Below, one piece after another: positions 1,518 through 54,350 of a stretch of DNA of 64,000 bases. Made by a program: the position numbers and the translations under genes. The notes below the pieces were generated by a model. The model worked only from the letters and a program-made list of their open reading frames with translations. It searched no databases and was not told the DNA's origin. Numbering within the stretch: position 1 is the stretch's first letter; every line of letters begins with the position of its first letter. Source of the stretch: a virus; the IMG/VR virus record IMGVR_UViG_3300017917_003379; one strand, given 5' to 3'.

Positions 1518-2369
1518 ATGAAAATCAAACATTCAAAATTCAAAAATACCGGTATATTATTTGAATTACTAGTACGCCAGATAGCATCGGATACTATATC
1601 CGGTAAAGATTCTGCTGCTATTAACTTAGTTAGAAAATATTTTTCTAAATCTGAATTAACTAAAGAACATAAGCTATATCAAGCTTTAATTAATACTAAA
1701 GTATTAACTGAAAGTAAAGCAGAATCGTTAATTAATGCAACTTTAGAAATATCTTCTAGATTAAATCGTACTACTCTTCGTAAAGAAAAATACAATTTGA
1801 TTAAAGATATTCGTGAAGCGTATGATATAGAAGAGTTTTTCAAAGCTAAAATTAACAATTATACACAATATGCGGCTGCATATAATTTAATTGAAACTCA
1901 TAATTCAACAGAATTTATTGATCCTTCTAATGTTATTGAAAATAAAATAACTTTACTTGAACATATTACTCGTAAAGAATTAAATAGAGATAATATTAAA
2001 GATCGTGTATTAGAAGAATATGCTAGAATGGATAAAGGTACTCGTATTTTAGCATATAAAATATTGCTTGAAAAGTTCAATGAAAAGTATGGTAATATGT
2101 CATCTGCTCAAAAAACAGTACTAAAAGAATATATTAACAATATATCTAATACAGTTAAATTACGTGAATTTGTTAACACTAACTATCTCAGTATTAAAAA
2201 ACGTTTAGTAGAATTAAACAAATCAGTAACAGATAAAACTACTCAAATTAAAATAAATGAAGTAATAAATTTGTTAAAACCATTGGATAAAAACCAAAAC
2301 GTAAAGGACGACAATATTATAGCTTTACTTCAATTTCATCAGTTAATTGACGAATTAAACGCAGTATAA
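1518..2369 (+). CDS. Head-module hypothetical protein
   Basis: 283-aa helical ORF directly after portal with its own ATATTTAT motif. No catalytic motif recognised. Confidence 0.6.
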   Translation: MKIKHSKFKNTGILFELLVRQIASDTISGKDSAAINLVRKYFSKSELTKEHKLYQALINTKVLTESKAESLINATLEISSRLNRTTLRKEKYNLIKDIREAYDIEEFFKAKINNYTQYAAAYNLIETHNSTEFIDPSNVIENKITLLEHITRKELNRDNIKDRVLEEYARMDKGTRILAYKILLEKFNEKYGNMSSAQKTVLKEYINNISNTVKLREFVNTNYLSIKKRLVELNKSVTDKTTQIKINEVINLLKPLDKNQNVKDDNIIALLQFHQLIDELNAV

Positions 2370-3064
2370 TGGGAAATTTGAAAGAATATATAAAATCATT
2401 AGTACGCAAAGAGTTAGAAGAACAATCTGCTACTGGTGCTATTGGTGTAGGTGCTGGTCCAATACAAACTCCAAAAGCTTTTGCTCCTAAAGGACAAAAG
2501 AAAAACAAAGCAACAAAATATGCTGAAAAAGAAGGATGGAAAGTAACTAAAGGTGAAACCACAATGCCTTCTGATTCTAAAGTAAGAGATTATAAATCAC
2601 TTTGGCCTTCTGCTAAAAAGAAAAAAGTAAAAATTTATAATGAGCGTAGTAACTATGACCAAGCATCAAAATATGGTGCTGCTAGTGGATATACTGCTGC
2701 TAGTGGTTATACTGGTCCTAGTTTAGCTACTAAAGGTGGTGGATATTATGCAAGTGCTATAAAAGAAAATAATATGAATTTAAATAATATTGTTAAACAA
2801 GAATTACTTAACGAAGTAACATACAACAAGTTCAAAAACGAAGTTAAATATAGAACTAAAGCTGAACAACTTCATAAAGCAATTCGTGAAGTAAAACGTA
2901 AACTACAAGAAATAGATCGTATTGTTGAATACACACAACGTATGAAACAAGAATTAAGTGAAGGTGAAGGTATCCAATATTGGAACCGCACAAATAAAGC
3001 AGTAGCTACTATTTCAGAAATGGTAAATCATTTAAATAATAAAATTAAAAATTTAAATCAATAA
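2369..3064 (+). CDS. Putative prohead core/internal protein
   Basis: Coupled to the previous ORF (TAATG). Leader LKEYIKSLVRKELEE, several (L/I)xE sites and a C-terminal coiled coil. Confidence 0.5.
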   Translation: MGNLKEYIKSLVRKELEEQSATGAIGVGAGPIQTPKAFAPKGQKKNKATKYAEKEGWKVTKGETTMPSDSKVRDYKSLWPSAKKKKVKIYNERSNYDQASKYGAASGYTAASGYTGPSLATKGGGYYASAIKENNMNLNNIVKQELLNEVTYNKFKNEVKYRTKAEQLHKAIREVKRKLQEIDRIVEYTQRMKQELSEGEGIQYWNRTNKAVATISEMVNHLNNKIKNLNQ

Positions 3065-3192
3065 TGGCTAAAGCAAGAGGTTCAAACGATGTTAAAAAAG
3101 TAACATTCGGTTCTCGTAAAAAAGGAAGTGCAAAAAAATCATATAATAAACATACACCTCGTCCTAAAAAATATCGTGGACAAGGTAGATAA
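3064..3192 (+). CDS. Small basic protein ending KKYRGQGR (42 aa, not in the ORF track)
   Basis: Read manually: MAKARGSNDVKKVTFGSRKKGSAKKSYNKHTPRPKKYRGQGR. TAATG coupling to the upstream ORF. Confidence 0.7.
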   Translation: MAKARGSNDVKKVTFGSRKKGSAKKSYNKHTPRPKKYRGQGR

Positions 3193-3204
3193 AAATATAT
3201 AATA

Positions 3205-3669
3205 ATGACTGTTAAAGATCTACGTATATTAGTTAAAGAAGTATTAAAAGAAACAAAAACTTTAGGTGAAATAAGAATATCTCAACCTACTAAAAAACCC
3301 TATGATCAAGTAATAGATATATCTTTAGAATATACAGGATGTAGTGAATATGGTGTTTTAATTGATGGTATGAAAAATAATGAAAACATAAGTGTACATA
3401 TATGCCTTGATGTTGAAGAATACTGGGAACCTGCTGAACCTCAAACACTATACTCACCCGGCACTGCAGGTGGTTTAACAGAATTAGAATTGGATATAAT
3501 TAATGGCACTATATATAATGAAACTAATACTCTTGACAGAACTTTAACTTCAGGAGAAATTGTAGCAATTAAAAGAGATAAAGCAGTAATGGATCATATT
3601 TATCAACTTCTATTTGATGAAATATCAAATCGACCACAAGATGAACCTTATGATCCTTATGATTATTAA
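3205..3669 (+). CDS. Putative internal head protein
   Basis: Leader MTVKDLRILVKEVLKE followed by an acidic domain. Lies in the head module. Confidence 0.45.
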   Translation: MTVKDLRILVKEVLKETKTLGEIRISQPTKKPYDQVIDISLEYTGCSEYGVLIDGMKNNENISVHICLDVEEYWEPAEPQTLYSPGTAGGLTELELDIINGTIYNETNTLDRTLTSGEIVAIKRDKAVMDHIYQLLFDEISNRPQDEPYDPYDY

Positions 3670-3712
3670 ATATAATAAAAACATAATAACGTTAGACAAT
3701 AAATAAAATAAA

Positions 3713-4831
3713 ATGAAAAGCATTAAACAACAGTATATAGATTTAAAAGAAGGTAAAATGTCACAAGCAAACTTTATGCGTAATTTACGCATGACTTTAC
3801 CTCAATATGTAACTAACGTAACTTCATATAATGATGCTGTTAAAATTCTTCGCAACAAAGGTATTTTAAATGAAAGTCTTATTAAGCAACTAGAACAAGG
3901 TATTGAAGTAGAAAAAGAACACACTAGTGATGAAATTAAAGCTGCTGAAATTGCTTTAGATCATTTAAAAGAAAAACCTGACTATTATACTAAATTAAAA
4001 AAAGCCGGTTTAGAAGAAAATAAAAATTGGACTAACGCTAGCGGAAAAGAATTATATAGTCAATTTAAAGAAATTGATAACCTAAATAGCCAAGAAGTAT
4101 TAATTGGTATTGATTTTGAAATTGAACAAAATCATGAGTTATCTAAAGAAGAAGCTGTTAAGATTGTTATTAAAAATTTAAAGAAAAACCCATACTATTA
4201 TACTACTAGTTTAATGGCTGGTAAAAAATTTGAAGAAATACCCACTATTGGAAAATTAACACCTGGTTCTGATAAAATGAAAGAATTTAAAGGTGAAAAC
4301 GATGCTATTGATAAGGACAACATGATGAAACCTGTTAAAGGTATTGATAAACCTAAAAAAGACTCTGATAAAGGTGGTGAAAAAAATAAAATGGTTAAAA
4401 ATGTTTCTTCTATGTCTTTAGTTGCTAAAACATCTCGTGGTGTGCAAAAAATGGCTGCTACTGGTGAAAAAATGAAAACTATCAGAGAAGCAGAAGAAAA
4501 GAAAAATACAGATACATCTTCTAATACAAAAAGTGTACCTAGTACTATTTTTAGCAAAAATGCTAAGTTAAGTGCTAGTATTAGTAAATTAATGGATAAA
4601 GATCCAAATGCTGTTAGTAAACAAAATAGACTTAAAGATATCATTCGTGAATTAATTAAGCAAGAAATGTATGATGGAATGGAACCAATGAGCCGTAAAG
4701 AATTAGATGAAACTGATATATATGGTATTGCTGGTAATCCTGAAAAAGAAAAAGAAGCACGTCTTGCCTCTATAAAAAAATCTAAACCCTCTACAACAAC
4801 AACTAAAAGTACAAAAAAGCCTAAAAAATGA
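3713..4831 (+). CDS. Putative prohead core/internal protein with two DUF5661-like repeats
   Basis: GIEVEKEHT..AAEIALDHLKEKPDYYTKL plus a second degenerate copy. Many (L/I)xE sites. ATGA overlap with the protease gene. Confidence 0.5.
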   Translation: MKSIKQQYIDLKEGKMSQANFMRNLRMTLPQYVTNVTSYNDAVKILRNKGILNESLIKQLEQGIEVEKEHTSDEIKAAEIALDHLKEKPDYYTKLKKAGLEENKNWTNASGKELYSQFKEIDNLNSQEVLIGIDFEIEQNHELSKEEAVKIVIKNLKKNPYYYTTSLMAGKKFEEIPTIGKLTPGSDKMKEFKGENDAIDKDNMMKPVKGIDKPKKDSDKGGEKNKMVKNVSSMSLVAKTSRGVQKMAATGEKMKTIREAEEKKNTDTSSNTKSVPSTIFSKNAKLSASISKLMDKDPNAVSKQNRLKDIIRELIKQEMYDGMEPMSRKELDETDIYGIAGNPEKEKEARLASIKKSKPSTTTTKSTKKPKK

Positions 4832-5442
4832 AACAGCTTTTAATAGAACATATTCCCTTTAGTATAGCTAAACTTACTCTTACTGAAAGTAAGGGTGGTA
4901 GAATGGTATTAGAAGGTAAACTGCAAGAAGCCGAACAAAAAAATGGTAACGGCCGTGTTTATCCTAGAGAAGTATTACAACGCGAAGTAGAAAAATATAT
5001 TAAAGGGCCTATATCCCAAAACAATGCCCTAGGTGAACTAGACCATCCAGAATCATCTGTAATTAATTTATCTAACGTTTCTCATAATATTAAAAAAGTA
5101 TGGTGGGATGATAATAATTTAATGGGTCGTTTAGAATTACTTAACACACCTTCTGGTAAAATTGCTATGGAATTAGTAAGCGCTGGTATTCCTTTAGGAA
5201 TATCATCTCGCGGTATGGGTAGCGTTAAGCAGCTAGGTGAAACAGTTGAAGTACAAGATGACTTTGAATTATTATGTTGGGATCTGGTATCTATACCCAG
5301 CACACCAAATGCTTACATGCAACCTGTTGGTTCATTAAAAGAAGGCAAACAATTTAATACTATTACTAAAGACTATAGCAGAGTAAATTCACTTATTACA
5401 GAAATTATTTGCAGTCAAACTGGTATTTGTCCTTTATGTTAA
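4828..5442 (+). CDS. Prohead maturation protease (T4 gp21-like)
   Basis: NGNGRVYPREVL, GELDHP (His), GISSRGMGS (Ser), WDLVSIPSTPNA (Asp). Confidence 0.92.
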   Translation: MKQLLIEHIPFSIAKLTLTESKGGRMVLEGKLQEAEQKNGNGRVYPREVLQREVEKYIKGPISQNNALGELDHPESSVINLSNVSHNIKKVWWDDNNLMGRLELLNTPSGKIAMELVSAGIPLGISSRGMGSVKQLGETVEVQDDFELLCWDLVSIPSTPNAYMQPVGSLKEGKQFNTITKDYSRVNSLITEIICSQTGICPLC

Positions 5443-5512
5443 TGTAAAGACTTTGAAATATTTTATTGGCTTTTACTTCTATCATATATCTTATTAGGAA
5501 ATAGATCACATT

Positions 5513-6196
5513 GTGACACTACAGCAAATAAAACAGTTTTATAAAGCATATAAGCAACAAGTTCTTGATGAAATGCAAGAATACTATGATGCTCCTCTAC
5601 AACATATAGAAAGGATAGAATATAATAAGTGGATAGCCTATGAAAATAATATAAAAGTTAATTTTGTATTTATGCGGCGTTTTGGTAATGATTTATATAA
5701 GCTACCTAATATAATCGATAAAAATCAAATAAAAGAGTATTATGAACGTTCATGGAGTTGGGACGAAACAACTCCCGAAAATGAACGAAACGCTAAAAAT
5801 TTCCTTAGAGTAATAGGTACTAGTTTTAAAATAACCCAACAATTTTTTCAAGATAAACCTAACTGTAAAATTTTACTATTTACCTCATTAACAAAAGGCC
5901 ATAATAGTATATATAGCAATCCATCTAGATATAGCAAAAAACTAATATCAATATTAGGAGACCAATATCATTATATATCAGACCCAGATAACTTTAGGTA
6001 CTGGATTATAAATAAAGATGTAATAAACTATAAAAACCAAAATCATATAAATATACGAATGGAAATGTTAGGAGAAAATATGGATGAAGCTATCAAATAT
6101 TGGTATTATCCTCTAAAATATTCCTCAACTTCTTTAAATGTAAAAATTAAAGCTAAAATAAAGCAAAAAATATTAAGAGAAATATACATAAAATAA
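5513..6196 (+). CDS. Hypothetical protein, possibly related to the 10338 and 39496 products
   Basis: 227-aa ORF with a GTG start. Segment FLRVIGTSFKITQQFF..ILLFTS has a similar pattern to the other two. Confidence 0.5.
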   Translation: MTLQQIKQFYKAYKQQVLDEMQEYYDAPLQHIERIEYNKWIAYENNIKVNFVFMRRFGNDLYKLPNIIDKNQIKEYYERSWSWDETTPENERNAKNFLRVIGTSFKITQQFFQDKPNCKILLFTSLTKGHNSIYSNPSRYSKKLISILGDQYHYISDPDNFRYWIINKDVINYKNQNHINIRMEMLGENMDEAIKYWYYPLKYSSTSLNVKIKAKIKQKILREIYIK

Positions 6197-6255
6197 AATT
6201 AATCGCGATTTTTAATATTTACATATATTTATATCAAACATATCAAAAAAATAAA

Positions 6256-6672
6256 ATGGCCCAATTAATTAACGAAGCAAAAAGAATGCAATTTTTAGCT
6301 GGAATTATTACTGAATCTCAAATAAATGAATTAAATGAACCTGAAAAGGAACTAGTTGATGTTATTTTAGGTGAAGGTATTAATGAAGGAAAATTTAATC
6401 CTAAAGAAATATTAGCTAAATTAATAGCTGTAGCTAAAAAAGGTTTACTTACTGCTACTATTTTATCTACTGTTTTAGCATCTTGTAATTTTGGTCCATC
6501 TGTTGATGAAACTATTAAGAATAGAGTAGAACAACATAAAATTATAAATAGTATGGAATTAGACCAATGGAAAAGAGATGAAACTTTTAAAAATAAAATG
6601 GATAGCCTTAAACAAGATTTAAAAGCAATTGAATATCAATCTGGACTTTCTAATCCTAAAAATCCTTTCTAA
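6256..6672 (+). CDS. Putative head-packaged protein with internal lipoprotein signal
   Basis: Leader LINEAKRMQFLAGIITE. Internal KKGLLTATILSTV-LASC lipobox-like segment. Confidence 0.55.
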   Translation: MAQLINEAKRMQFLAGIITESQINELNEPEKELVDVILGEGINEGKFNPKEILAKLIAVAKKGLLTATILSTVLASCNFGPSVDETIKNRVEQHKIINSMELDQWKRDETFKNKMDSLKQDLKAIEYQSGLSNPKNPF

Positions 6673-6674
6673 GT

Positions 6675-7268
6675 ATGTTAATAAAAGAAGCAAAACGATT
6701 ACAACAATTAGCTGGTATCATTACTGAAGCTGAGCAAGTTGATAGTGCTGAACAAGCCGCTGAAAAAGGATTAATAGATTTTTTAGGAGACATTAAATCA
6801 GCAGCATCAACTATCAAACCATCTCCTAAAGATGGAAAAATACAAGAAGGACTTTTAACATTATTTGCCATCACTGCTGGTGCTCCAGGTTTATTAAATT
6901 TACTAGGTAAAGGAGCTGATTTAATAGGTCAATATTTTTCACAAGGTAATGTAACTTCTACTAAAGTAGGAGCAGCTTTACAAAAAGCAGGACATAGCTT
7001 AGAACATAAGTATATTGAAGCAATTGCCTTTCTATTAAAAAAAGCATATCCTAAAGATTATGGAAATCAAGATCCATTTGATAAATCATCTCCATTACAC
7101 GATACAGCTCATGGAATTTATGCTGCTATACTAGCAGCGGCCGCTGTGGGATCAGGAATAGAAGCAACTAATGCTGTTAATTTAATTGTAAAAGGATTAG
7201 AAGGAGGAGCAGCAGCTTTTAAAACAGCTGAAGTTGTACAATTAGTACAAAAAATAACAACCGTTTAA
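6675..7268 (+). CDS. Putative head-packaged membrane-interacting protein
   Basis: Leader LIKEAKRLQQLAGIITE. Gly/Ala-rich hydrophobic helices. Confidence 0.5.
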   Translation: MLIKEAKRLQQLAGIITEAEQVDSAEQAAEKGLIDFLGDIKSAASTIKPSPKDGKIQEGLLTLFAITAGAPGLLNLLGKGADLIGQYFSQGNVTSTKVGAALQKAGHSLEHKYIEAIAFLLKKAYPKDYGNQDPFDKSSPLHDTAHGIYAAILAAAAVGSGIEATNAVNLIVKGLEGGAAAFKTAEVVQLVQKITTV

Positions 7269-7425: not shown

Positions 7426-8505
7426 ATGAGTAACAAAAACTTATTCAAAGAGGCTATCGCCGACGCCAAAGCCGTTCGCGAAGCAGCGTTAGCAAACGCA
7501 AAAGCCGCTCTTGAAGAAGCTTTAACTCCCAAACTTCAGTCTATGTTAGCTGCAAAGCTTAATGAAATGGCTGATGAAGAAGAGCTTGAAGAAGCAAGAG
7601 ACGACGAAAATGAAATGGAAGAAGGAATGCATCCTGACATTACCGGAGACACTATTCAAGACAAATACCGTGCAACTGGTGCTGCTCTTGAAGAAATGGG
7701 GATGGATATGGAAATAGATGAAGAAGACTTCGACTTATCTGAAATTTTAGCTGAACTTGAAGATGAAGAAGAAATTGAAGAAGATTTTGATTTATCTGAA
7801 ATCTTAGCTGAATTGAAAGAAGAAAAAGAAGAAGAGGAAGAGGAAGAAGAGGAAGAAGAAGAGAAAGAAGAGGAAGATGAAGAATTAGAGATCAAAGACA
7901 TGAGTGTTGAAGATCTTAAAGATCTTATCCGCGACATCGTATCCCAAGAAATGGAAGAAGAAGCTCCTGCTGGTGAAATGGAAGCTGAACCTTCTATGGA
8001 AATGGGTGGTGAAGAAATGACTAGCGATGATGAAGATGAGATTGATTTAGAAGAACTTTTAGCTGAATTAGATTCTTTAGACGGAACATCCGAGCTTGAA
8101 GAAGCTAAGAAGAAAAAAGCTAAGCAAGATGAAAAAGCTAAAAAAGAAAAAGAAAAAGAACTTGCTGAGGCTATTAGAACTATTAACACCCTTCGTAAAG
8201 AATTAAACGAAGTTAACTTATTAAATGCTAAGTTAATTTATGTTAACAAAATCTTTAAAGCTAAGAATTTAACTGAATCACAAAAAGTAAAAGTAATTTC
8301 TTCGTTTGACCAAGCAACAACTGTAAAAGAAGCTAAAGTTGTATTTGAATCCTTAAATATGGCTTTAACAACAGCTCCTGCCAAAAAGCAAATTAAAGAA
8401 TCTTTAGGATTTGCTTCTAAAGCTGCTGGTGTAGCTCCTAAAAAAGTAATTGTTGAGTCTAATGACGTAATTGCTCGTATGCAAAAACTTGCAAACATTA
8501 AATAA
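7426..8505 (+). CDS. Prohead scaffold protein (T4 gp22-like)
   Basis: Very acidic coiled coil between protease and capsid genes. Many LxE sites. C-terminus RMQKLANIK. Confidence 0.8.
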   Translation: MSNKNLFKEAIADAKAVREAALANAKAALEEALTPKLQSMLAAKLNEMADEEELEEARDDENEMEEGMHPDITGDTIQDKYRATGAALEEMGMDMEIDEEDFDLSEILAELEDEEEIEEDFDLSEILAELKEEKEEEEEEEEEEEEKEEEDEELEIKDMSVEDLKDLIRDIVSQEMEEEAPAGEMEAEPSMEMGGEEMTSDDEDEIDLEELLAELDSLDGTSELEEAKKKKAKQDEKAKKEKEKELAEAIRTINTLRKELNEVNLLNAKLIYVNKIFKAKNLTESQKVKVISSFDQATTVKEAKVVFESLNMALTTAPAKKQIKESLGFASKAAGVAPKKVIVESNDVIARMQKLANIK

Positions 8506-8542: not shown

Positions 8543-10183
8543 ATGAACATCCAACAATTATTAGAGTCGTCTAACCAATATAAGGTTATTGCTGACGACG
8601 CAAGAAAACTTAACTCCAAGTGGGTTAAATCTGGCCTTTTAGAAGGTTTAAAGAATGAGAACGATCGCAACACTATGGCGATGTTACTCGAAAACCAAGC
8701 TAAGCAATTAGTAACTGAAGCTTCTCAAACTGGTACTGCTACCATCGGTGGTGGTGGATATGGTCAGGAAGCTTGGAATGGTGTAGCTTTACCATTAGTA
8801 CGTCGTGTATTTGGTGAAATCGCCGCTAAAGAATTCGTTAGTGTACAGCCTATGAATTTACCTTCTGGTCTTGTATTCTATTTAGATTTCAAATACGGTA
8901 GCAACTTCCCCGATCCTTTCACCCAGAATGGTTCTTTATATGGTGCTAACGCTACTACTAACGTAACTGACATTGCTTCTCAGTCGCTTTATGGTGCTGG
9001 TCGCTTTGGTTACACTATCAACCAATTCTCTGCTTCTATTACCAATGCTGGTACTAGTTCAGCTACATGGGCTGATTTCAACTTTGATTCTGACTATTCA
9101 GCTTCTGCTGCTGCTGGTTCTTGGAAGAAAATCTTAGTTCCCCTTCCTTCTACTGCTGATCAGCTTGGCGTTCGTGCTTTCACTATCGCTTCTGGTTCTA
9201 TCGGTGTAAGTGATGTATTACAAGCTTTCACTACTGTAACTAACAGTACTGCTTCGTTTATTGTTACTGGTTCGCTTGTAGCTGCTAATATGAGTCCTAC
9301 TGCTGCTACTGTAACATTATATTTCAATGTTGCTCCTCTTTCTACTGCTCGTGGTGATTTTGAAGATGCTAGCGGTGCTGGTTATCCTTCATACAACAGC
9401 ACAGCTGCTGGTGCAGGTAGTGCAATTGCTATTCCTGAAATCAATGTTCAGTTAAAATCTGAGCCTATTGTTGCTAAAACTCGTAAGTTAAAAGCACAGT
9501 GGACTCCAGAATTCGCTCAGGATCTTAACGCTTACCATAGTGTAGATGCTGAAGCTGAATTAACTGGTATTCTATCTCAGTACATCTCTATGGAAATCGA
9601 CCTCGAAATTCTAGATATGTTAATCCAAAATGCTTTCACTAAAGATTACTGGAGTGCTGTCAACAACGTAACTATCGACTCTAACGGTGTTACTAATCCT
9701 GCTGCTTTAGCTTCTGGTTATTACAACACTCAGGGTGGTTGGTTCCAAACTTTAGGTACTAAACTTCAGAAAGTATCTAACAAAATTCATCAGTTAACTC
9801 TTCGTGGTGGCGCTAACTTCCTCGTAACTTCTCCCACTGTAGCTACTATCCTTGAATCTATTCCTGGATTTGCTGCTGATGGTGATGGTGAAAAGATGGA
9901 ATTCAACTTCGGTATTCAGAAGGTTGGTTCTCTCAATAGCCGTTACAAGGTTTATAAGAACCCATACATGACTGAAAACGTAATCTTAATGGGTTACAAA
10001 GGTGCTCAGTTCCTTGAGTGTGGTGCTGTATTTGCTCCATATGTGCCTTTAATCATGACTCCTCTTCTTTACGATCCTAATACCTTCACTCCACGTAAAG
10101 GTTTGATGACTCGTTACGCTAAGAAGATGATTAGACCGGACTATTATGGGAAGATTTATGTTAGTGGTTTAAATACTCTCTAA
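8543..10183 (+). CDS. Major capsid protein (T4 gp23-like)
   Basis: LPLVRRVF, VSVQPMNLPSGLVFYLDF, AKTRKLKAQWTPEFAQDLNAYH, EIDLEIL, YVPL, FTPRKGLMTRYA. Strongly biased codon usage. Confidence 0.96.
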   Translation: MNIQQLLESSNQYKVIADDARKLNSKWVKSGLLEGLKNENDRNTMAMLLENQAKQLVTEASQTGTATIGGGGYGQEAWNGVALPLVRRVFGEIAAKEFVSVQPMNLPSGLVFYLDFKYGSNFPDPFTQNGSLYGANATTNVTDIASQSLYGAGRFGYTINQFSASITNAGTSSATWADFNFDSDYSASAAAGSWKKILVPLPSTADQLGVRAFTIASGSIGVSDVLQAFTTVTNSTASFIVTGSLVAANMSPTAATVTLYFNVAPLSTARGDFEDASGAGYPSYNSTAAGAGSAIAIPEINVQLKSEPIVAKTRKLKAQWTPEFAQDLNAYHSVDAEAELTGILSQYISMEIDLEILDMLIQNAFTKDYWSAVNNVTIDSNGVTNPAALASGYYNTQGGWFQTLGTKLQKVSNKIHQLTLRGGANFLVTSPTVATILESIPGFAADGDGEKMEFNFGIQKVGSLNSRYKVYKNPYMTENVILMGYKGAQFLECGAVFAPYVPLIMTPLLYDPNTFTPRKGLMTRYAKKMIRPDYYGKIYVSGLNTL

Positions 10184-10337: not shown

Positions 10338-10811
10338 ATGAAATTAATAGAAATTATACAACAATTAATTCAAGAAAATAAAGATTTTCCTTGGATAGAA
10401 CAACGTGAATATGAATTATTAGCTGAATTTAATTATAATTTAGAAGATACATATCCAATAACAAATGAATTACCATTTAATATTGAATTTAAAGATGAAC
10501 AAAATGGATTAAATATTACTAAAGGTAAATTAAATAATGATTTTATTGAGATAAAATTATATTGGGTAGATAATCAAGGTAAAGTAAGAATGGATACACC
10601 TGAAGGTATTTTACCCAAAACAATGAATACTCATTTGAATAATATTTTAAATAAATTTTTACCTAATTATAATAAATTTTTAATAAGACCTAATGATGAT
10701 GTAAGATATAGATTATTCCAATTATTACTAAACAAATATATTAATAAAAATCAATGGAATATGGAATTTAATCCTGAAAATAAATCAATATTTTTAGTTA
10801 AGTATACTTAG
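10338..10811 (+). CDS. Putative internal head protein
   Basis: Leader MKLIEIIQQLIQE. Lies between two hairpin-plus-terminator units after the capsid gene. Confidence 0.5.
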   Translation: MKLIEIIQQLIQENKDFPWIEQREYELLAEFNYNLEDTYPITNELPFNIEFKDEQNGLNITKGKLNNDFIEIKLYWVDNQGKVRMDTPEGILPKTMNTHLNNILNKFLPNYNKFLIRPNDDVRYRLFQLLLNKYINKNQWNMEFNPENKSIFLVKYT

Positions 10812-12444: not shown

Positions 12445-14085
12445 ATGGCTGTAAACTTAAAAGATTTATACGATATTTACGGAGGTAACCCTTCATATCT
12501 TTCCCCAGTAAAAGGAAACACCCCGTTTGAATATTACACAAATGACCCTGAATTCACCACAGATGCACTCAGTGTGGCTCGTTTTGTTGCTCAAAGATTA
12601 GGTGTAGTAGGTAGTACTTTTAATAATATTACACAACAGTGTAATCCTTCTCCTAGTGTTTTAAGCATTACTGATTTAACAGTATATGCTGCTTTTGAAG
12701 AAGCAGTTACTACTTATGGTAATTTAGTTTACCAATATAAGATTAGAGATCAATACATTAATATGGAAGGTTCAGAAACATTACCTTTCTTCCATAATAC
12801 TATTACGTATGTTAATAGTAATGATGTAAATTCTCCTATAACTTGGTCTTCTGCTAGAGTAGCTCTTTGGAATGATATAGACAATGAACCCTCTTTATCT
12901 GCATCCGTAGCTGCAGGAAACATATATGTTATTTCAGCATCGATAGCCGATTTTATTAATCCTGATTTAAATTTTATTAAATCATTTAATTTAGCTGATA
13001 ACTATACTAGTGGAAGTACAAACTATAATTTAAGTTCATTTGTTTATAACCAGTTTAATAAAGTAGCAGGTCCTACTTCAGCTTCTGTTATTACATCAGG
13101 TAAAGACTATGTGTACTTATTTACTACTAATCCTGATATAGCAGGTGGATCAACATTCTTTGGAGCTAATCCAATACCAACTGTTTATATACAGTCTAAT
13201 TTAAAGAATGCTTTAAATAATAAATTACTAAATAATAATTTAGCCACTATTACTACTCGTATAGCAGAAGACTATGCTGCTGAAGCAGGTGTTGGTGGTT
13301 TTTATAATGTAAAAACAGGCTCGTTATATATGACAACGGGTCAACAAAATTACAATTTAAACGCTTGGGCTTCAGCTTCAGCATCATTAGCTGAAGGAGA
13401 CTCAATTGAAATTAGAAGAGTATTTTACCAACAACAACCAGCAATTGTTCGTTATTTTGATCCATATGCTGGTACAGGTACAGGTATCCAATCATTACTT
13501 GAATCATTTGGATTTGGTCAATTTTCTCCTGGTATTAATTTCTTATTAATGCCTATATATTTTGACGTTCAAAAAGTACAAGCGATTGAACTAAATGACC
13601 AAATAAGAAAAGCAGATTATTCATTTGATTTAAGAAATAATCAGTTAAAAATATTCCCCATACCAACAGAGGATAGATTATTGTTTTTTGAATACGTTAC
13701 TACAAGTGATAAAAACAACATATTAAGGGATAAAAGAACAAATGTAGTAACAGATATAATGAATGTGCCTTATAAAAATCCCATTTATTCCAACATTAAT
13801 ACCGTTGGTAGAACCTGGATATTTAGATACACATTAGCCATCTGTAAAGAAATTGAAGCACATATCCGTATCCAGTTTGCTAATATGCAAATTCAAGGAG
13901 TAGGACCGCTTCAAGGTAGTGAATTAATCACTGATGCTAGAACAGAAAAAGAAAACCTAATTACTGAACTAAAGGAAATGTTAAATGAAACATCACGTAA
14001 AGGTCAGCTTGAACGTAAACAACAAGAAGCTCAATTTACTCGTGATACATTAGCAAATGTTCCTTTACCAATCTATATAATGTAA
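12445..14085 (+). CDS. Neck/head-completion protein (gp13-like) with a large insertion
   Basis: AQRLG..AFEEAV at the N-terminus, YSFDLRNNQLKIFPIP, WIFRYTLAICKE, GSELITDARTEKENL. Position fits. Confidence 0.65.
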   Translation: MAVNLKDLYDIYGGNPSYLSPVKGNTPFEYYTNDPEFTTDALSVARFVAQRLGVVGSTFNNITQQCNPSPSVLSITDLTVYAAFEEAVTTYGNLVYQYKIRDQYINMEGSETLPFFHNTITYVNSNDVNSPITWSSARVALWNDIDNEPSLSASVAAGNIYVISASIADFINPDLNFIKSFNLADNYTSGSTNYNLSSFVYNQFNKVAGPTSASVITSGKDYVYLFTTNPDIAGGSTFFGANPIPTVYIQSNLKNALNNKLLNNNLATITTRIAEDYAAEAGVGGFYNVKTGSLYMTTGQQNYNLNAWASASASLAEGDSIEIRRVFYQQQPAIVRYFDPYAGTGTGIQSLLESFGFGQFSPGINFLLMPIYFDVQKVQAIELNDQIRKADYSFDLRNNQLKIFPIPTEDRLLFFEYVTTSDKNNILRDKRTNVVTDIMNVPYKNPIYSNINTVGRTWIFRYTLAICKEIEAHIRIQFANMQIQGVGPLQGSELITDARTEKENLITELKEMLNETSRKGQLERKQQEAQFTRDTLANVPLPIYIM

Positions 14086-14086: not shown

Positions 14087-14677
14087 ATGGCGTGGCCTAG
14101 AACTGGATTAGTATATCTTAATAACACTAGTGTTCCCACACCTGGTGTTTGTTTATCAACAGCAGCAACAGGCTCTTGTGGTGGAGGACCTGGTGGTGGA
14201 GGTGGAACTGGTGGTGGAGGTGGAGGAGGATTAGATCCTATTTTGGTAGGTCAAATACTTAACACTAACCAAAACGTTATATATTACAAAATAAATCTAG
14301 AACAAACAGTAACAAATATGTATGGTGAGTCACTAGAAAAGTGGTACTATACTGGAGTAGATGTACGTTGTAATATAAATAGAGGAGCAACTTCTAATCC
14401 AGATGATGAGTTTGGTATAGGTATAGCTCAAAATATAACAGTAGACATACCTAGAGCTCTTATCCAAACATATAATTTTCTACCAGAAGTAGGAGATATA
14501 TTAATGGACAGAGAAAGATATTATGAAGTAAATGCTGTGGATTCACAATTTGTAACTATACCAGGAACGGGAGCGTCAAATAGTGTACAAGGAACAACAG
14601 GACAAATTGTAATGTTTTCCTTATCATGTTATTTAACAAGAATAACAAAACTTAATATTATACCATATTATCAATGA
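14087..14677 (+). CDS. Neck/head-closure protein (gp14-like)
   Basis: YYKINLEQTVTNMYGES, PEVGDI, YYEVN. Gly-run linker near the N-terminus. Confidence 0.6.
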   Translation: MAWPRTGLVYLNNTSVPTPGVCLSTAATGSCGGGPGGGGGTGGGGGGGLDPILVGQILNTNQNVIYYKINLEQTVTNMYGESLEKWYYTGVDVRCNINRGATSNPDDEFGIGIAQNITVDIPRALIQTYNFLPEVGDILMDRERYYEVNAVDSQFVTIPGTGASNSVQGTTGQIVMFSLSCYLTRITKLNIIPYYQ

Positions 14678-15012
14678 TGAAAATAGCAAATATATTACTT
14701 GAAGGAGCTACTTTATATAAAGTAGATATCTTGATTAAAACCAAGAAAGAAGCTAATAAAGTAGAAATATATAATCAAATTAGAGCATTAACAAATGTTG
14801 TAGTTGTTACTGTTGAGCAAAATGATTTCTTAATTAGTAAATCAACTGATCAGTTTGATTATGAATTATTACATATAAAATTCTTATCAACTAAAGAACC
14901 TAAAGAAACTATAGATGAAATTAAAAAAGATGCCATGATTACTAGACGTATTCCTGGTTTGCTTCAATTCATAGTAAGGTATAAAACAATTCAATCAAAA
15001 GGTAAATATTAA
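14674..15012 (+). CDS. Putative internal head protein
   Basis: Leader MKIANILLE. Confidence 0.45.
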   Translation: MMKIANILLEGATLYKVDILIKTKKEANKVEIYNQIRALTNVVVVTVEQNDFLISKSTDQFDYELLHIKFLSTKEPKETIDEIKKDAMITRRIPGLLQFIVRYKTIQSKGKY

Positions 15013-15016: not shown

Positions 15017-15370
15017 ATGATAAAACTATTAAACATACTAAGCGAATTAGAAAAACCCCAACAAATATATAGTCCAGGATATGGACCTGGAAATGAACCT
15101 GATCAATTAATTTCAAAAGGATTCACAACTACTCCTCCAGAAATAGATCCAGAAACTGGAAGATCAACTTCTTTCGTAAAATATTTACCTGCATTCAAAC
15201 AAATGCGTATTGATCTTGTAAAAAAAAGAAATGAAGTAAAACCATTTAAATTTTCTTCTAACCCTGATATAGCTAATACAGCTAAAGAAGTAGATAAAAT
15301 AATGGGTAAACTATCTCAATTAATATTTGTTTTAGATAAAATGGTTGAATTACAGCAAAAAAATAGATAA
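15017..15370 (+). CDS. Putative internal head protein
   Basis: Leader MIKLLNILSE. Confidence 0.45.
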   Translation: MIKLLNILSELEKPQQIYSPGYGPGNEPDQLISKGFTTTPPEIDPETGRSTSFVKYLPAFKQMRIDLVKKRNEVKPFKFSSNPDIANTAKEVDKIMGKLSQLIFVLDKMVELQQKNR

Positions 15371-39458: not shown

Positions 39459-39495
39459 ATTTCACCATATTTATAAATACAAAAATAAATAAATT

Positions 39496-40026
39496 ATGAA
39501 GTCTCTATCTATGTTGGCAGTGCCTATTTATCAAAAATTAGCACAAGGGTATCCTAACCTAGCTGAACGTAGAGAAGCTACTAAACAATATTTGTTAAAA
39601 GAAATAACACACTGGGGTATAAAGGAACTAGAGCAAAATAACAGTTATTTCTTTAAACCTATTGAATTTGAAAAAACAGAAAATAGTAAACCATTTCAAG
39701 TTAGGTTACTATTAGAAGATAATGGATTTCATAGTTTGAAATTTGGTGATTTGAATGCTCAAACAGATAAAGAAAGATTTGAATGGGATGAAAATGATCC
39801 TTTCAAATTAAATAAAGCCTTGTTCTTATATGATGTTATAAATAAAAAAATTATTCCATTATTACAGAAAAATAAAATAAAGGGAATACAATTTGAACCA
39901 TATGATGGAGATGGATTAGAAAGTGAAAGACTAAGCTATTTCAATAATATGTACAATAAATTAGGAAAAGATTTTACTTGGTATCAAAAAGAAAACACAT
40001 TTTATATAACAAAAAAAAACAAATAA
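39496..40026 (+). CDS. Late-motif hypothetical protein, putative head cargo
   Basis: Single gene behind ATATTTAT inside the replication block. YLLKE site near the N-terminus. Confidence 0.5.
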   Translation: MKSLSMLAVPIYQKLAQGYPNLAERREATKQYLLKEITHWGIKELEQNNSYFFKPIEFEKTENSKPFQVRLLLEDNGFHSLKFGDLNAQTDKERFEWDENDPFKLNKALFLYDVINKKIIPLLQKNKIKGIQFEPYDGDGLESERLSYFNNMYNKLGKDFTWYQKENTFYITKKNK

Positions 40027-40391: not shown

Positions 40392-42242
40392 ATGGATGTA
40401 ACACAAGAGATTTTATCGGAAATTACTACTTATATGAAATATTCTAAGTATGTACCCGATTTGAAGAGAAGAGAAACATGGTATGAGTTAGTAACTCGAA
40501 ACAAAGAAATGCACCTAGAAAAATTCCCACAATTAAAAAATGAAATCGAGGAAGCTTATAAATTGGTATATGATAAAAAAGTTCTACCATCGATGCGTTC
40601 ATTACAATTCGCAGGTAAACCCATTGAACTTAATAATGCTCGTATATTTAATTGTTCTTTTTTGCCTATTGATGATTGGCGTTCATTCTCAGAAATAATG
40701 TTTTTATTACTTTCAGGATGTGGAGTAGGCTATTCAATACAAAACCATCATATTGAAAAACTTCCTGAAATTAAAATTCCTACAAAAACAAAACGTTATT
40801 TAGTAGGGGACAGTATTGAAGGATGGGCAGATGCTGTTAGGATGCTCTGTAAAGCTTATTTTCAAGGTACTCCTTTACCTCTATTTGATTTTAGAGATAT
40901 TCGCCCTAAAGGTGCTCAATTAATTACAGTAGGTGGTAAAGCTCCTGGTCCTGAACCTCTTAAAGAATGTTTGTTTAACCTTCAAAAAATATTTGATCGT
41001 AAAAAAACAGGCGATAAATTAAGTTCACTAGAAGCACATGATATGGCTTGTTATATTGCTGATGCTGTATTAAGTGGTGGTATTCGTCGAGCTGCTCTAA
41101 TTGCTTTATTTGATGTAGATGATGAAGAAATGCTAACATGTAAATTTGGCAATTGGTGGGAACAAAATCCTCAACGTGGGCGTGCTAACAACTCAGCAGT
41201 AGTATTGCGCCACAAAATTAATGAAGAAGAATTCTTCAAACTATGGAAAAAAATTGAACTAAGCAATTCAGGAGAACCAGGTATTTACTTTTCAAATGAT
41301 AAAGACTGGGGAACTAACCCATGCTGTGAAATTGCTTTACGTCCATATCAGTTTTGTAATTTATGTGAAGTAAATGTTTCAAATATTGAATCACAAGAAG
41401 ATTTAAATGAAAGAGTACGTGTAGGTGCTTTTATTGGTACTTTACAAGCAGCATATACTGATTTTCATTATCTAAGAGATATTTGGAAAAAAACAACCGA
41501 AAAAGATGCTTTATTGGGTGTTGGTATGACCGGTATTGGTAGTGGTGTTATTTTAAAATATGATTTGAAAAAAGCAGCCGAATTAGCTAAAGAAGAAAAT
41601 GCTCGTGTTGCTGAAATTATTGGTATTAATAAAGCAGCTCGCGTAACAACAGTTAAACCAAGTGGAACTAGCTCATTAGTGTTAGGTACTAGCTCTGGCA
41701 TACATAGTTGGCATAATGATTATTATATTCGTAGAATCAGAGTAGGTAAAAATGAAACCATTTATACTTACCTATCAATCCACCACCCAGAATTGGTTGA
41801 AGATGATTTCTTTAAACCAACAATCCAAGCAGTAATTTCAGTACCACAAAAAGCACCTGAAAATTCTATTTTAAGAAACGAAGATGTAATTGATATGCTT
41901 GAACGTGTTAGAAAGTTTAATGTAGAATGGGTTAAAAAAGGACACCGTAAAGGAGCCAATACTAATAACGTATCCGCTACAGTATCTATTAAAGAAAATG
42001 AATGGGAAAAAGTAGGTAAGTGGATGTGGGAAAATAAAGAAACATTTAATGGACTATCAGTACTACCTTATTTTGGAGGTTCGTATACTCAAGCACCATT
42101 TGAAGATATTACTAAAGAACAATTTGAAGAAATGGTAAAACACCTCCATCAAGTTGACTTAAGTAAAGTAGTTGAATTTGATGATAATACAGCATTGATG
42201 GATCAAGCCGCATGTGCTGGAGGTGCGTGTGAAATAGTGTAA
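40392..42242 (+). CDS. nrdJ: Class II (B12-dependent) ribonucleotide reductase
   Basis: FNCSF, TNPCCEI, CNLCE, VKPSGT, C-terminal ACAGGACEI. No beta-subunit gene adjacent. Confidence 0.9.
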   Translation: MDVTQEILSEITTYMKYSKYVPDLKRRETWYELVTRNKEMHLEKFPQLKNEIEEAYKLVYDKKVLPSMRSLQFAGKPIELNNARIFNCSFLPIDDWRSFSEIMFLLLSGCGVGYSIQNHHIEKLPEIKIPTKTKRYLVGDSIEGWADAVRMLCKAYFQGTPLPLFDFRDIRPKGAQLITVGGKAPGPEPLKECLFNLQKIFDRKKTGDKLSSLEAHDMACYIADAVLSGGIRRAALIALFDVDDEEMLTCKFGNWWEQNPQRGRANNSAVVLRHKINEEEFFKLWKKIELSNSGEPGIYFSNDKDWGTNPCCEIALRPYQFCNLCEVNVSNIESQEDLNERVRVGAFIGTLQAAYTDFHYLRDIWKKTTEKDALLGVGMTGIGSGVILKYDLKKAAELAKEENARVAEIIGINKAARVTTVKPSGTSSLVLGTSSGIHSWHNDYYIRRIRVGKNETIYTYLSIHHPELVEDDFFKPTIQAVISVPQKAPENSILRNEDVIDMLERVRKFNVEWVKKGHRKGANTNNVSATVSIKENEWEKVGKWMWENKETFNGLSVLPYFGGSYTQAPFEDITKEQFEEMVKHLHQVDLSKVVEFDDNTALMDQAACAGGACEIV

Positions 42243-42253
42243 TATTTATTGAT

Positions 42254-42895
42254 ATGATAAAACTAATAGATATATTAAATGAAGCTATAAATAAAGATAT
42301 TGTTTATATCTACAGAAGTCAAAAAAGTTTACCCGATATTGAAGCCAATGGTATAAAAATGTCAGATAAAAATAAACAAAATTCTGAAGATTATAATATT
42401 CCTGATTATGGGTATACTTATTATACCTCTACTAGTAAAAATTCTAACTGGATTGATAGAAATCCATATGGAAATGCTGATAATCCGTATACTGTAAGAG
42501 TATCTATAGACTTAAATAAAATAAAAAACGATAAAAATTATAGTTTTAAAGATTTAAATGATGTAGAAGGATGGAACTACCCAGAGTATCAAGAAGTAAG
42601 AATATATTCTAATACAAAAGATAGAATACCCCCAGAATATATTAGTTCTATTGATATTCTTAGAAGAAAATCGGGAGATGAATATGGATGGGATTTTATT
42701 GGTAAACTTGACCTAGAACCAGAAGTAAAAGCATACATTGATAATACTTTTAAAGAAAACCCAGACTTAGATGAAGATTCGTTCCCATACGATGAAATGT
42801 ATGATTATTTTACAGAATTTTGGAATCATGAAGATGAGTCTTATGATGATGTTTCTCGAGAAGTTATAGATTATATAAGATCTAAAGTTAGTTAA
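42254..42895 (+). CDS. Putative head-packaged ADP-ribosyltransferase-like protein
   Basis: Leader MIKLIDILNE, then YIYRS, YTSTS, EYQEV and IPPEYI in the order of R-S-E ART motifs. Confidence 0.5.
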   Translation: MIKLIDILNEAINKDIVYIYRSQKSLPDIEANGIKMSDKNKQNSEDYNIPDYGYTYYTSTSKNSNWIDRNPYGNADNPYTVRVSIDLNKIKNDKNYSFKDLNDVEGWNYPEYQEVRIYSNTKDRIPPEYISSIDILRRKSGDEYGWDFIGKLDLEPEVKAYIDNTFKENPDLDEDSFPYDEMYDYFTEFWNHEDESYDDVSREVIDYIRSKVS

Positions 42896-49208: not shown

Positions 49209-49226
49209 AAATCGTATATTTAAAAT

Positions 49227-49952: not shown

Positions 49953-50470
49953 TGTTAAACGCACAACAAATTTTAGATGAAGGACTTTTATTACTAGAAC
50001 ACACCCAAGGCAAACCAGCTCAAGTAGGCTATGATCTTAGTATTAAACAAGTGAATATCGTAGGTGGTAAAAAGAATATGGCTGGGTTTCGTATTGGTAA
50101 AGTATTAAAAGATAAGACTGAATTGACTAATTATGACCCTTATGGTTTAATGAATTTAGATGGAGTCAATGGTTGGTTACTTTATGAAGGAGTATACGAT
50201 ATTACTTTTAATGAAGGATGTAAAATCCCTAATAATAGAGTAGCTTTTATTAAACAACGATCTTCCCTATATCGTAATGGCGCCATCATTAATAGTCCAG
50301 TATTTGATCCTGGTTTTGAAACTCAATTTATGGGAACCTTAATGTATATTCATTGTCCTATCTTTATTGAAGAAAATGCTCGAGTAGCTCAAATTTATTT
50401 TCACGAATGTCAATCAGCAGAAATGTATAATGGACAGTGGCAAAATGATAAACAACGATCATCATTGTAA
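49952..50470 (+). CDS. dUTPase / dCTP deaminase family protein
   Basis: GYDL, RSSLYRNG, FDPGF, RVAQIYF, YNGQWQ. The deaminase Glu after PGF is not evident, which favours dUTPase. Confidence 0.8.
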   Translation: MLNAQQILDEGLLLLEHTQGKPAQVGYDLSIKQVNIVGGKKNMAGFRIGKVLKDKTELTNYDPYGLMNLDGVNGWLLYEGVYDITFNEGCKIPNNRVAFIKQRSSLYRNGAIINSPVFDPGFETQFMGTLMYIHCPIFIEENARVAQIYFHECQSAEMYNGQWQNDKQRSSL

Positions 50471-50486
50471 AATTTGATATAAACTA

Positions 50487-50509
50487 ATGCCCCTCATTGT
50501 GAGGGGCAT
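50487..50509 (+). terminator. Hairpin between the dUTPase gene and a late-motif gene
   Basis: atgcccctca-ttg-tgaggggcat, overlapping ATATTTAT at 50508. Confidence 0.6.
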
Positions 50510-50519
50510 ATTTATGTAT

Positions 50520-51146
50520 ATGCCAATAACACTATTGAATACAAACGGAACAGGTAAAGTTACTTTAATAAATAATAATAATATAGGAAATATTATATTA
50601 AATGTAGCAAGCAGTGTTACTTCTAGTTCTGAATTTTATTCTAATTTTGAATCTTATATCATAAATGGTGTAAGGCAAGCAACTACATATGACTTAGTTA
50701 GAACTAATATATCAACAAATAGAAGATTAGTTGTAGCTGAAACGATAACTATAACTGGATTTAAATTTATAAGAATACCTCCTGATAACTGGTCATCCAT
50801 ATCAGGATATACTGTTACTGGAACTTTATCTATAGTGTCAGGGACGGGAGCTACAATTGATGGTGGAGTTTCAAGTAAAAGTTTTAATACAAAATCAACA
50901 ATAGCTACTCCCTCCGTATCTGCACAAAGAGCAAATAATACATCACAGTATGATATATATGATGTAAGGCCAGTTAATAATACTACTACAACATTAACAG
51001 CCGGGCAATATACTATTACGTTATTTGGAACAGGAGCTAATATGGACATAGCTACTTTAACAAATTCTTTATTTCCTATTGATACAACTAAAAAAATATA
51101 CCCTGCAAGTAATGTTTCAACTCATTTTGCCATGCAAGTTTTTTAA
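50520..51146 (+). CDS. Beta-rich putative virion protein
   Basis: Thr/Ser/Asn-rich. Start set just after the ATATTTAT motif because the track's 50487 start lies inside the hairpin. Confidence 0.5.
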   Translation: MPITLLNTNGTGKVTLINNNNIGNIILNVASSVTSSSEFYSNFESYIINGVRQATTYDLVRTNISTNRRLVVAETITITGFKFIRIPPDNWSSISGYTVTGTLSIVSGTGATIDGGVSSKSFNTKSTIATPSVSAQRANNTSQYDIYDVRPVNNTTTTLTAGQYTITLFGTGANMDIATLTNSLFPIDTTKKIYPASNVSTHFAMQVF

Positions 51147-51185
51147 TTTGATTTTGTCAAAACAATTTAATATATTAAAAAAGTT

Positions 51186-53762: not shown

Positions 53763-53804
53763 TGGTTATTTAATATATGGCGAGAAAAATAAATATTTAT
53801 AACC

Positions 53805-54350
53805 ATGATTAAATTAATAGATATACTAAAAGAAAATAAAAGAAACATTTATTTAACAATGTATGCTCTTTTTACTGAAAAAAACGGCAGTTGGAAAACA
53901 GAAAATGATTGGTCTTTTAACCCCACATTTAAAACACAAGGTTTAATAGCAACATATGGAAAAGGAGCTAATGGGCAAAGTTGGGGTAAACCATCAATTT
54001 TATGTACAGAATATAATGGAGAAAATCCATTTGAAGGATCACATTCTGGTTGGAAATATGCTATTATTTTTAAAAAAAATATTGATGAAATTTATATAGA
54101 TGATGAAATTTTTTATTATGGAGATTATCCTTCTGAAGAACAAGAGAAAGAAGCAATAGAATATATATATAAAACAACAGATAATAAACAAGATGTTTCT
54201 TTAGGTGTATTACATACTAAATTTGGATCTATTATAATTCAAGATAATTTTCCACAAGGAAATTATGTTTTAAATATAAAACCTAATGAGATAATCAAAA
54301 TTGTTAAAGGAGAAGGAAATATAAAAATAAAGTTTGGTAAGTCAAATTAA
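53805..54350 (+). CDS. Putative internal head protein
   Basis: Leader MIKLIDILKE, 4 nt after ATATTTAT. Inserted between PolB and the clamp. Confidence 0.5.
   Translation: MIKLIDILKENKRNIYLTMYALFTEKNGSWKTENDWSFNPTFKTQGLIATYGKGANGQSWGKPSILCTEYNGENPFEGSHSGWKYAIIFKKNIDEIYIDDEIFYYGDYPSEEQEKEAIEYIYKTTDNKQDVSLGVLHTKFGSIIIQDNFPQGNYVLNIKPNEIIKIVKGEGNIKIKFGKSN

Follow-up and report, generated by a model that had tools for sequence, protein, structure and literature searches.

Results

Leader families and their members

The stretch of DNA analyzed here, hereafter the window, comprises 64,000 nucleotides of IMG/VR virus record IMGVR_UViG_3300017917_003379 and corresponds to bases 63,999-127,998 of one 155,189-bp phage contig, hereafter the genome. 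Our subject is a set of short N-terminal leaders, or tags, that recur on otherwise unrelated proteins encoded there. The genome has a G+C content of ∼30%, and its + strand holds nearly all genes. The closest annotated relative is Flavobacterium phage vB_FspM_immuto (capsid protein identity 58%), followed by the remoter Microcystis phage Mel-JY01 (48%) and Rhodothermus phage RM378 (40%); the phage is an uncultured, T4-like phage of Flavobacteria-type hosts. The sample of relatives used below consists of 78 IMG/VR loci with capsid proteins 59-89% identical. Positions are those of the window unless the genome or another locus is named.

Three leader families, all short amphipathic helices, occur in the genome: MIKLxD(I/L)LxE (class 1), xINExKRMQxLAGI(I/N)xE (class 2), and MKKSELRxIIKEE (class 3). 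Six open reading frames (ORFs) of the window are firm members:

42254-42895, + strand: class 1 leader MIKLIDILNE, a predicted ADP-ribosyltransferase (ART)-fold domain (residues ∼11-140, AF2 model), and an acidic helical tail
53805-54350, + strand: class 1 leader MIKLIDILKE on a body without an assigned fold; orthologues bear class 1, 2, or 3 leaders
15017-15370, + strand: class 1 leader MIKLLNILSE on a conserved 117-amino-acid body (profile E 7e-4)
14674-15012, + strand: class 1 variant leader MKIANILLE on a conserved 111-amino-acid body in the structural block (profile E 0.074)
6256-6672, + strand: class 2 leader KRMQFLAGIITE on a variable body (scaffold C-terminus profile E 0.035)
6675-7268, + strand: class 2 leader KRLQQLAGIITE on a different body (scaffold C-terminus profile E 0.02)

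Membership was judged with profiles built solely from the leaders of other phages and then run against this genome. The class 1 profile retrieved 11 ORFs, every one of them aligned at the start Met, with E values of 1e-5 to 0.07 and then a gap to E 1.7. Seven ORFs of the genome belong to class 2, and the class 3 profile gave four strong matches (E 1e-9 to 1e-6) and one weak one. About 22-30 genes of the genome are tagged. Most of them lie beyond the window, at genome 37-60 kb just 5′ of the terminase gene in the whole-genome ORF list, and 27 of the 30 catalogued tagged ORFs fall in the structural half of the genome.

What the tagged proteins share ends with the leader. Class 1 leaders are 10 residues long and end in L-x-E; of 41 unique ones, 36 have Glu at position 10, right beyond which conservation is lost. 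For class 2, 40 of 46 leaders have [LIVM]xE beginning 0-1 residue past LAG. The bodies of the 30 catalogued ORFs, taken from residue 31 to the end, have no mutual BLASTP similarity except for one marginal pair. The invariant columns in the alignment of the 6256 product, including E20, lie solely in its leader. The two conserved class 1 bodies of the structural block carry related leaders across phages: 14674 has 43 orthologues, many with a canonical MIKLxD(I/L)LxE, and the 35 orthologues of 15017 bear MIKL or MKLLDII leaders.

A MIKL regular expression applied to all six frames matched 10 times in the genome, each time at a + strand ATG and never internally. Likewise, a degenerate DNA pattern for the leader gave eight matches on the + strand and none either on the − strand or with a reversed control. 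The codons of the leaders differ synonymously and their upstream flanks are unrelated; therefore, leader conservation is at the level of the peptide and not of the DNA. This conservation spans relatives of only 58-60% capsid protein identity. On the other hand, 29% of untagged ORFs have a bare (L/I)xE among their N-terminal 25 residues, as do 26% of internal windows, and the presence of this motif near an N terminus is too loose to be diagnostic.

An earlier note on this DNA had listed a wider set of such N termini, all of which are indeed present where it placed them. The core families that it described are confirmed and prove larger than it had noticed; its list was over-inclusive, and several entries fall outside the families. 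From its first class, the class 1 profile recovers 42254 (E 1e-5), 53805 (4e-5), 15017, and 14674, and is negative for 10338. The pair that formed its second class, 6256 and 6675, is upheld as our class 2. Of its third class, 3205 is marginal and 2369 is not recovered by the class 3 profile. The N termini of the capsid protein (MNIQQLLE) and the protease (MKQLLIE) had been counted as similar beginnings; the leader profiles recover neither. Finally, 39496, named alongside 42254 and 53805 as standing alone in the replication block, is without a leader, and its N terminus belongs to a body conserved in 64 homologues. The loose or excluded candidates are as follows:

10338-10811, + strand: ORF starting MKLIEIIQQLIQE, a doubtful member (one homologue in relatives; class 1 profile negative)
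3205-3669, + strand: small acidic ORF with a class-3-like leader, a weak member (class 3 profile E 0.21, residues 4-17)
2369-3064, + strand: conserved head-module protein with an N-terminal amphipathic helix ending in LEE, class-3-like, membership unproven
39496-40026, + strand: conserved 176-amino-acid ORF of no leader class, outside the tag system

No homologue of 3205 was found in the loci of the 78 relatives. About 60 orthologues of 2369 in the relatives retain LKEYIKxLVRxxLxEE, and in some of them the helix is internal, behind an additional N-terminal domain; the location of this gene corresponds to that of the T4 core proteins gp67 and gp68. Searches of ten window candidates against PHROGs and Pfam returned nothing significant, and 39496 in particular had no match in either.

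The head module and its cut sites

The tagged genes share the window with a head module that is, judging from its annotated genes, T4-like, comprising a portal, a Peptidase_S77 protease, an acidic scaffold, and a Gp23-type capsid protein:

1-1481, + strand: portal protein, T4 gp20 type (Pfam Portal_T4, E 2.7e-59); its 5′ end lies beyond the window
3713-4831, + strand: DUF5661 head-module protein (Pfam DUF5661, E 2.5e-15)
4828-5442, + strand: prohead protease with N terminus MKQLLIE (Pfam Peptidase_S77, PF03420, E 2.9e-30)
7426-8505, + strand: acidic scaffold protein, analogue of T4 gp22; the class 2 core forms its final 10 residues, ARMQKLANIK (8473-8502)
8543-10183, + strand: major capsid protein, gp23 type (Pfam Gp23, E 5e-79)
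8543-8719, + strand: predicted capsid propeptide, cut after LVTE(59)

Residue 30 of mature T4 gp23* aligns with capsid residue 82 here, and the T4 cut, FLTE/AEIGG, lies opposite LVTE(59)/AS. The site, L(V/I)xE followed by A/S, is kept in all relatives, and a KW.K..LLEG stretch of the propeptide is common to T4. On this alignment, the capsid propeptide and its cut site are judged homologous to those of T4. The protease itself starts MKQLLIE, compared with MNEPQLLIE in T4 gp21, and shares the L-I-E site; LIE-9 of gp21 has been discussed as a likely autocleavage or targeting site (PMC9026906). The invariant Glu that bounds the leaders appears to match the specificity expected of an S77 protease. 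The DUF5661 protein carries an internal class-3-like motif at residues 307-318 (class 3 profile E 0.006).

Class 2 leaders and the scaffold C terminus

The full-length scaffolds of the 78 relatives all end in (S/T/A)R(M/W/F/L)(Q/K)xLA(G/N)I..K, and the same motif ends the scaffolds of immuto, Mel-JY01, and RM378. A profile of this tail, built from relatives only, was run against 240 ORFs of the genome. It ranked the scaffold first and the seven class 2 ORFs directly after it (E 4e-4 to 0.035), with the next match at 0.6. In the non-scaffold ORFs of the relatives, the class 2 motif is N-terminal in 53 cases, at the extreme C terminus in seven, and internal in two, and the C-terminal copies end in K, without the Glu. 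Such a pattern would be expected of N-terminal tags that can be cleaved off and C-terminal tags that stay uncleaved.

In many tailed phages, and in herpesviruses too, the scaffold classically contacts the capsid protein through its C terminus; the best reading of class 2 is therefore a scaffold contact that has been borrowed. Two proteins of the genome appear to be addressed at both ends. The ORFs at genome 43842-45881 (679 amino acids, class 1 leader) and genome 59485-60483 (332 amino acids, class 3 leader) also carry a C-terminal class 2 motif, ending in ...LKLAGILR and ...MQYYAGIKK, respectively. Orthologues of the 332-amino-acid protein in the relatives retain the C-terminal motif.

Exchange of leaders and bodies

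The same body can be found behind different leaders. Of the homologues of the 53805 body (51-67% identical), four bear a class 1 leader, two a class 3 leader (MKKLELRQLIKEE...), and two a class 2 leader (...LQKLAGIE). In one relative (L054), the 14674 body stands behind two class 2 tags, and in immuto gp187 a different leader precedes the DUF5872 body found in genome ORF 39415. The genome also holds one acidic domain twice, as an untagged 77-amino-acid ORF behind an early-type promoter and as a class-2-tagged 103-amino-acid ORF behind the motif ATATTTAT described below; the two share a common block in which 95 of 98 nucleotides are identical. Since leaders are swapped on orthologous bodies, the three classes do one job that does not depend on the payload. 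In silico, these exchanges support the view that the leader is a portable, payload-independent module.

The L054 ORF (L054:12521-13849, 442 amino acids) has its two tags in tandem ∼160 residues apart, followed by the 14674-type body, and looks like a polyprotein of tagged modules.

The repertoire varies among phages. Strict class 1 genes number eight here versus two to three in two complete relatives, mostly with other bodies, among them one P-loop kinase-like and one DarT-like protein. In immuto, class 1 is represented by one gene and class 2 by two.

Payloads

One payload with a usable model is that of 42254. Its AF2 model has a pLDDT of 69, with leader residues 1-12 disordered (below 50). 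All the Foldseek matches listed belong to the ART superfamily (E values from 2.6e-4), and VIA-align superimposed the model on Tpt1/KptA (Z 9.1, rmsd 3.0 Å, 93 aligned) and then on DarT and the A chains of cholera and pertussis toxins (Z 6-7). On this model, the protein has an ADP-ribosyltransferase fold. R21, S59(-T-S), E111, and E114 are invariant among 16 orthologues, whereas a distant relative with the same leader (P0032) has LYHFT (DarT-like) and EERIYS instead. A profile search of a 1.8-billion-protein library returned just four representatives and no distant named relatives. This payload family is very narrow and comes in two putative active-site flavors, YRS...STS and LYHFT, both behind a MIKL leader.

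The AF2 model of 53805 (pLDDT 48) was too poor for a structure search; an Atlas match to a DarT/PARP-containing cluster (score 0.91) stays a lead only. Among the remaining tagged bodies are a GNAT acetyltransferase (E 3e-11), a WYL_2 domain (E 1.3e-7), and DUF5872 (E 5e-4, under the Pfam cut-off). Most have no family.

The ATATTTAT motif upstream of tagged genes

The earlier note had also proposed that a late promoter and a leader form one portable unit. The upstream motif in question, ATATTTAT, does lie before the three genes that it named and before one class 2 gene:

6225-6232, + strand: ATATTTAT, 23 nt 5′ of 6256
39467-39474, + strand: ATATTTAT, 21 nt 5′ of 39496
42242-42249, + strand: ATATTTAT, 4 nt 5′ of 42254
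53793-53800, + strand: ATATTTAT, 4 nt 5′ of 53805

The motif occurs 67 times on the + strand and 18 times on the − strand (expected, ∼28); 42 copies lie between genes, usually with 4-40 nt separating them from a start codon. It precedes most structural operons, including those of the terminase, portal, scaffold, sheath, and tube. In the replication block it stands before small ORFs only, 39496, 42254, and 53805 among them, and it also precedes an array of MORN genes at the genome start. There, at genome 1865-4346, TTCTTATCTT is fused to ATATTTAT in an extended conserved box before four small MORN-like genes, apparently a distinct subclass of the motif.

ATATTTAT has no −35 element, and this, together with its placement before structural operons, fits a late box or promoter, a role that can only be inferred. 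A copy 4 nt from the ATG would require a leaderless mRNA. A T4-type late box, TATAAATA, was considered and rejected, as it has no + strand bias (31 versus 47), and host-type Bacteroidota promoters (TAnnTTTG / TTTG) are not enriched in the intergenic DNA. A separate element, TTGTCAAAAT followed after ∼13 nt by TATATTTAAT, occurs at nine intergenic sites (genome 9392-11886, 47422, and 97230, the last being window 33232), mostly before small ORFs at genome 9-12 kb. None of the nine precedes a tagged gene, and the element is probably an early promoter class.

Within the genome, ATATTTAT lies within 80 nt of 12 of 30 tagged ORFs versus 39 of 192 others (p 0.03). The co-occurrence predicted for related genomes is not seen; there the association is reversed (13 of 86 tagged versus 318 of 1025 others, against a crude ORF background). 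The unit of promoter and leader describes two cassettes of the window, 42254 and 53805, and is no general rule, as most tagged genes stand in arrays. Overall, a promoter-leader cassette is weakly supported.

Discussion

By analogy with T4, the three leader families are probably capsid (prohead-core) targeting propeptides, forming a greatly expanded T4-type system. During head assembly, a leader would bind the scaffolding core or the inner capsid surface, and a class 2 leader would do so through the same contact as the C-terminal R(M/W)QxLA(G/N)I peptide of the scaffold. The Peptidase_S77 prohead protease would then cut after the final Glu of the leader, at hydrophobic-x-Glu, and so free the payload inside the head. 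The payload could later exit with the DNA. The payloads are enzymes and small proteins, the predicted ART-fold protein 42254 and a GNAT acetyltransferase among them, and their plausible target is the host at the onset of infection. C-terminal class 2 copies, which lack the Glu site, would tether a protein without releasing it.

A bolder version, which we hold to be possible though short of probable, extends to a clade of >600 aquatic T4-like phage contigs. In these phages, interchangeable terminal address peptides would turn any gene into an injected effector. The peptides would constitute an address code in which N-terminal copies release cargo and C-terminal copies tether it, with at least one address copied from the scaffold tail. 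If so, the virion would carry a large, fast-changing protein arsenal, including NAD+-using ART-fold enzymes and acetyltransferases, and phages of Bacteroidota would possess a natural programmable protein-packaging system.

Several observations weigh against targeting and injection as we propose them. The cut site alone proves little, as hydrophobic-x-Glu is common in this proteome. In sequence, the leaders share with the T4 capsid targeting sequence (CTS) nothing but their length and the x-L/I-x-E end. The payloads are not basic in the manner of the T4 internal proteins, an expectation that we had to reject; their median pI is 5.75 versus 6.2 for other ORFs, which is not a difference. The 42254 protein has no Pfam match, and its assignment to the ART fold comes from a model in which confidence is moderate. 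Class 1 and class 3 leaders resemble by eye a scaffold repeat, L(D/E/S)E(I/L)LAEL, and a central scaffold helix, ELKD(L/I)IKDI, respectively, and profiles of these two elements retrieve no tagged ORFs (best E 0.9 and 1.1); we therefore keep scaffold mimicry for class 2 alone. Even for class 2, the candidate partner of the tail is either the capsid protein or the core. Finally, we found no virion proteomics, N-terminomics, or transcript data for the phage or its relatives.

Among the alternatives, the strongest accepts that the tags load the prohead core and takes the proteins to be assembly accessories, that is, scaffold or core parts, size or stability factors, or proteins degraded and expelled. 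Five of the candidate genes (2369, 6256, 6675, 14674, and 15017) do lie within the head/neck gene block, three of them (2369, 14674, and 15017) are conserved in relatives like structural genes, many payloads are small, acidic, and of no assigned fold, and in T4 the fragments of gp67 and gp68 leave the head (PMC9026906). We nevertheless consider this unlikely, given enzyme folds with no obvious role in assembly (the predicted ART fold of 42254 and the GNAT protein here, the P-loop kinase-like and DarT-like bodies in relatives) and a repertoire of strict class 1 genes that differs among relatives more than is typical of assembly factors. Less likely again, the leaders could be docking helices for a partner other than the capsid, such as a hub protein, a phage GroEL/GroES, or a membrane or replication compartment. 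A short amphipathic helix is a generic interaction element, the phage encodes its own chaperonin, and the tagged genes 42254 and 53805 sit among replication genes. What speaks against such a partner is that class 2 is the terminal motif of the scaffold and is found at protein termini, the two internal cases in relatives aside. In addition, three classes interchangeable on one body imply one destination for all, and the invariant Glu boundary fits the specificity expected of the S77 protease (PMC9026906).

Two further explanations would dispense with a targeting peptide altogether. The leaders might be a DNA-level feature, either a site of recombination and cassette shuffling or a translation-initiation region. 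They start exactly at the start codon, some with ATATTTAT just 4 nt 5′, and in Bacteroidota, which rely little on Shine-Dalgarno sequences, initiation could be influenced by A/U-rich starts. We regard this as very improbable, because the peptide is kept under synonymous codon variation with unrelated flanks, in relatives as distant as noted above, and because the class 2 motif is found at C termini too, including that of the scaffold. Chance, in the form of the amphipathic, Glu-rich N termini of an AT-rich proteome, is the least credible of all. It does hold for the loose members, with a bare (L/I)xE so common at untagged N termini and with 10338, 3205, and the capsid and protease N termini failing the profile searches. 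For the core families it is refuted by pattern matches confined to + strand starts, by controls without a match, and by profiles from other phages that recover the members with a clean gap in E value.

The CTS of T4 is the textbook case of pre-loading proteins that act before phage gene expression, IPI against restriction and Alt on RNA polymerase; Mullaney and Black reportedly described this targeting sequence on the internal proteins in 1996. It is carried by IPI, IPII, and IPIII, which are unrelated internal proteins, and by Alt and is removed by gp21 (PMC9026906, PMC3012670). The tag is all that the internal proteins have in common, and the cut follows L/I-x-E (PMC3012670, PMC9026906, PMC5694885). 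Alt itself is a packaged, processed ADP-ribosyltransferase (PMC9026906), to which the predicted ART fold of 42254 offers a close parallel, and the core proteins gp67 and gp68 are cut as well. The analogy with T4 drawn in the earlier note holds for the S77 protease, for the homologous capsid propeptide and cut site, and for the 10-residue class 1 leader with its L-x-E end. Both systems have a 10-residue N-terminal leader (that of IPII and IPIII in T4; class 1 here) with an (L/I)-x-Glu end on unrelated mature parts, a Peptidase_S77 encoded beside a gp22-type scaffold and a gp23-type capsid protein, and, counting 42254 as the counterpart of Alt, one payload with a known or predicted ADP-ribosyltransferase fold. 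They differ in that there are here three interchangeable leader families and about 22-30 tagged genes, as opposed to four or five, in that one leader copies the scaffold C terminus and also occurs as a C-terminal tag without the Glu site, and in that the payloads are not mainly basic. The present system is predicted from sequence. As judged by their letters, the tags are analogues of the T4 CTS or at most very distant relatives. The T4 N termini used here (MKTYQEFIAE of ipII and ipIII, and that of ipI) come from NC_000866. In the same genome the scaffold gp22 (L089:1118-1927, L090; NC_000866) starts with MLKEQLIAE and then A, resembling the CTS, MKTYQEFIAE and then A; a tag that echoes a scaffold terminus may exist in T4 as well.

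In the giant phages phiKZ, 201phi2-1, and SPN3US, many head-internal proteins are cut after Glu by a diverged gp21 homologue (PMC5694885, PMC9026906). SPN3US gp53 and gp54 are similar to the present case in having conserved N termini on otherwise diverged paralogues. The propeptides of giant phages are mostly >100 residues long with cuts at S/A-x-E, whereas the leaders here have 9-25 residues, an aliphatic P3, and nonparalogous bodies. Reuse of a scaffold terminal peptide by another protein for procapsid entry or contact also has parallels, as the herpesvirus protease and scaffold share a capsid-binding C terminus and SaPI1 CpmB mimics the scaffold C terminus of 80alpha. In those systems the peptide is C-terminal and belongs to a single dedicated partner, either a protease or a protein that redirects size; the present tag is portable and mostly N-terminal, is followed by a predicted cut site, and occurs on at least seven unrelated proteins per genome. 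The cargo-loading peptides of encapsulins, too, are short terminal peptides that send diverse enzymes inside an HK97-fold shell. They differ in not being removed by a protease and in a setting without scaffold, DNA, or delivery to another cell. Literature searches found no paper on the present leaders and no virion proteomics for immuto, Mel-JY01, or RM378.

If the leaders are targeting propeptides, the logic of T4 targeting would operate on a roughly fivefold scale and with three swappable tags in a lineage that is distant, uncultured, and abundant in the environment, and the scaffold-derived tag suggests how targeting may work, by mimicry of a scaffold contact. The tagged genes would then provide a list of candidate injected effectors for Flavobacteria phages, the ART-fold and GNAT enzymes included. 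A short peptide able to package foreign proteins into such phages would be a useful tool, and the tag profiles could pick out virion-internal proteins among the “hypothetical” genes of metagenomes.

Additional features of the head module

Two further observations concern the head genes themselves. A 42-codon ORF at 3064-3192 encodes an extremely basic, K/R/G-rich peptide that may be a DNA-condensing internal peptide; Mel-JY01 has a gene annotated as S21 at a similar place. In some relatives, a second capsid-protein paralogue lies directly 3′ of the first (L027:11659-13356, L037:11743-13449, and L051:5974-7617). It is ∼70-75% identical to the capsid protein of the window, has a nearly identical N-terminal propeptide, and is probably a gp24-like vertex protein. 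At the corresponding position, the window carries an unrelated 546-amino-acid ORF (12445-14085).

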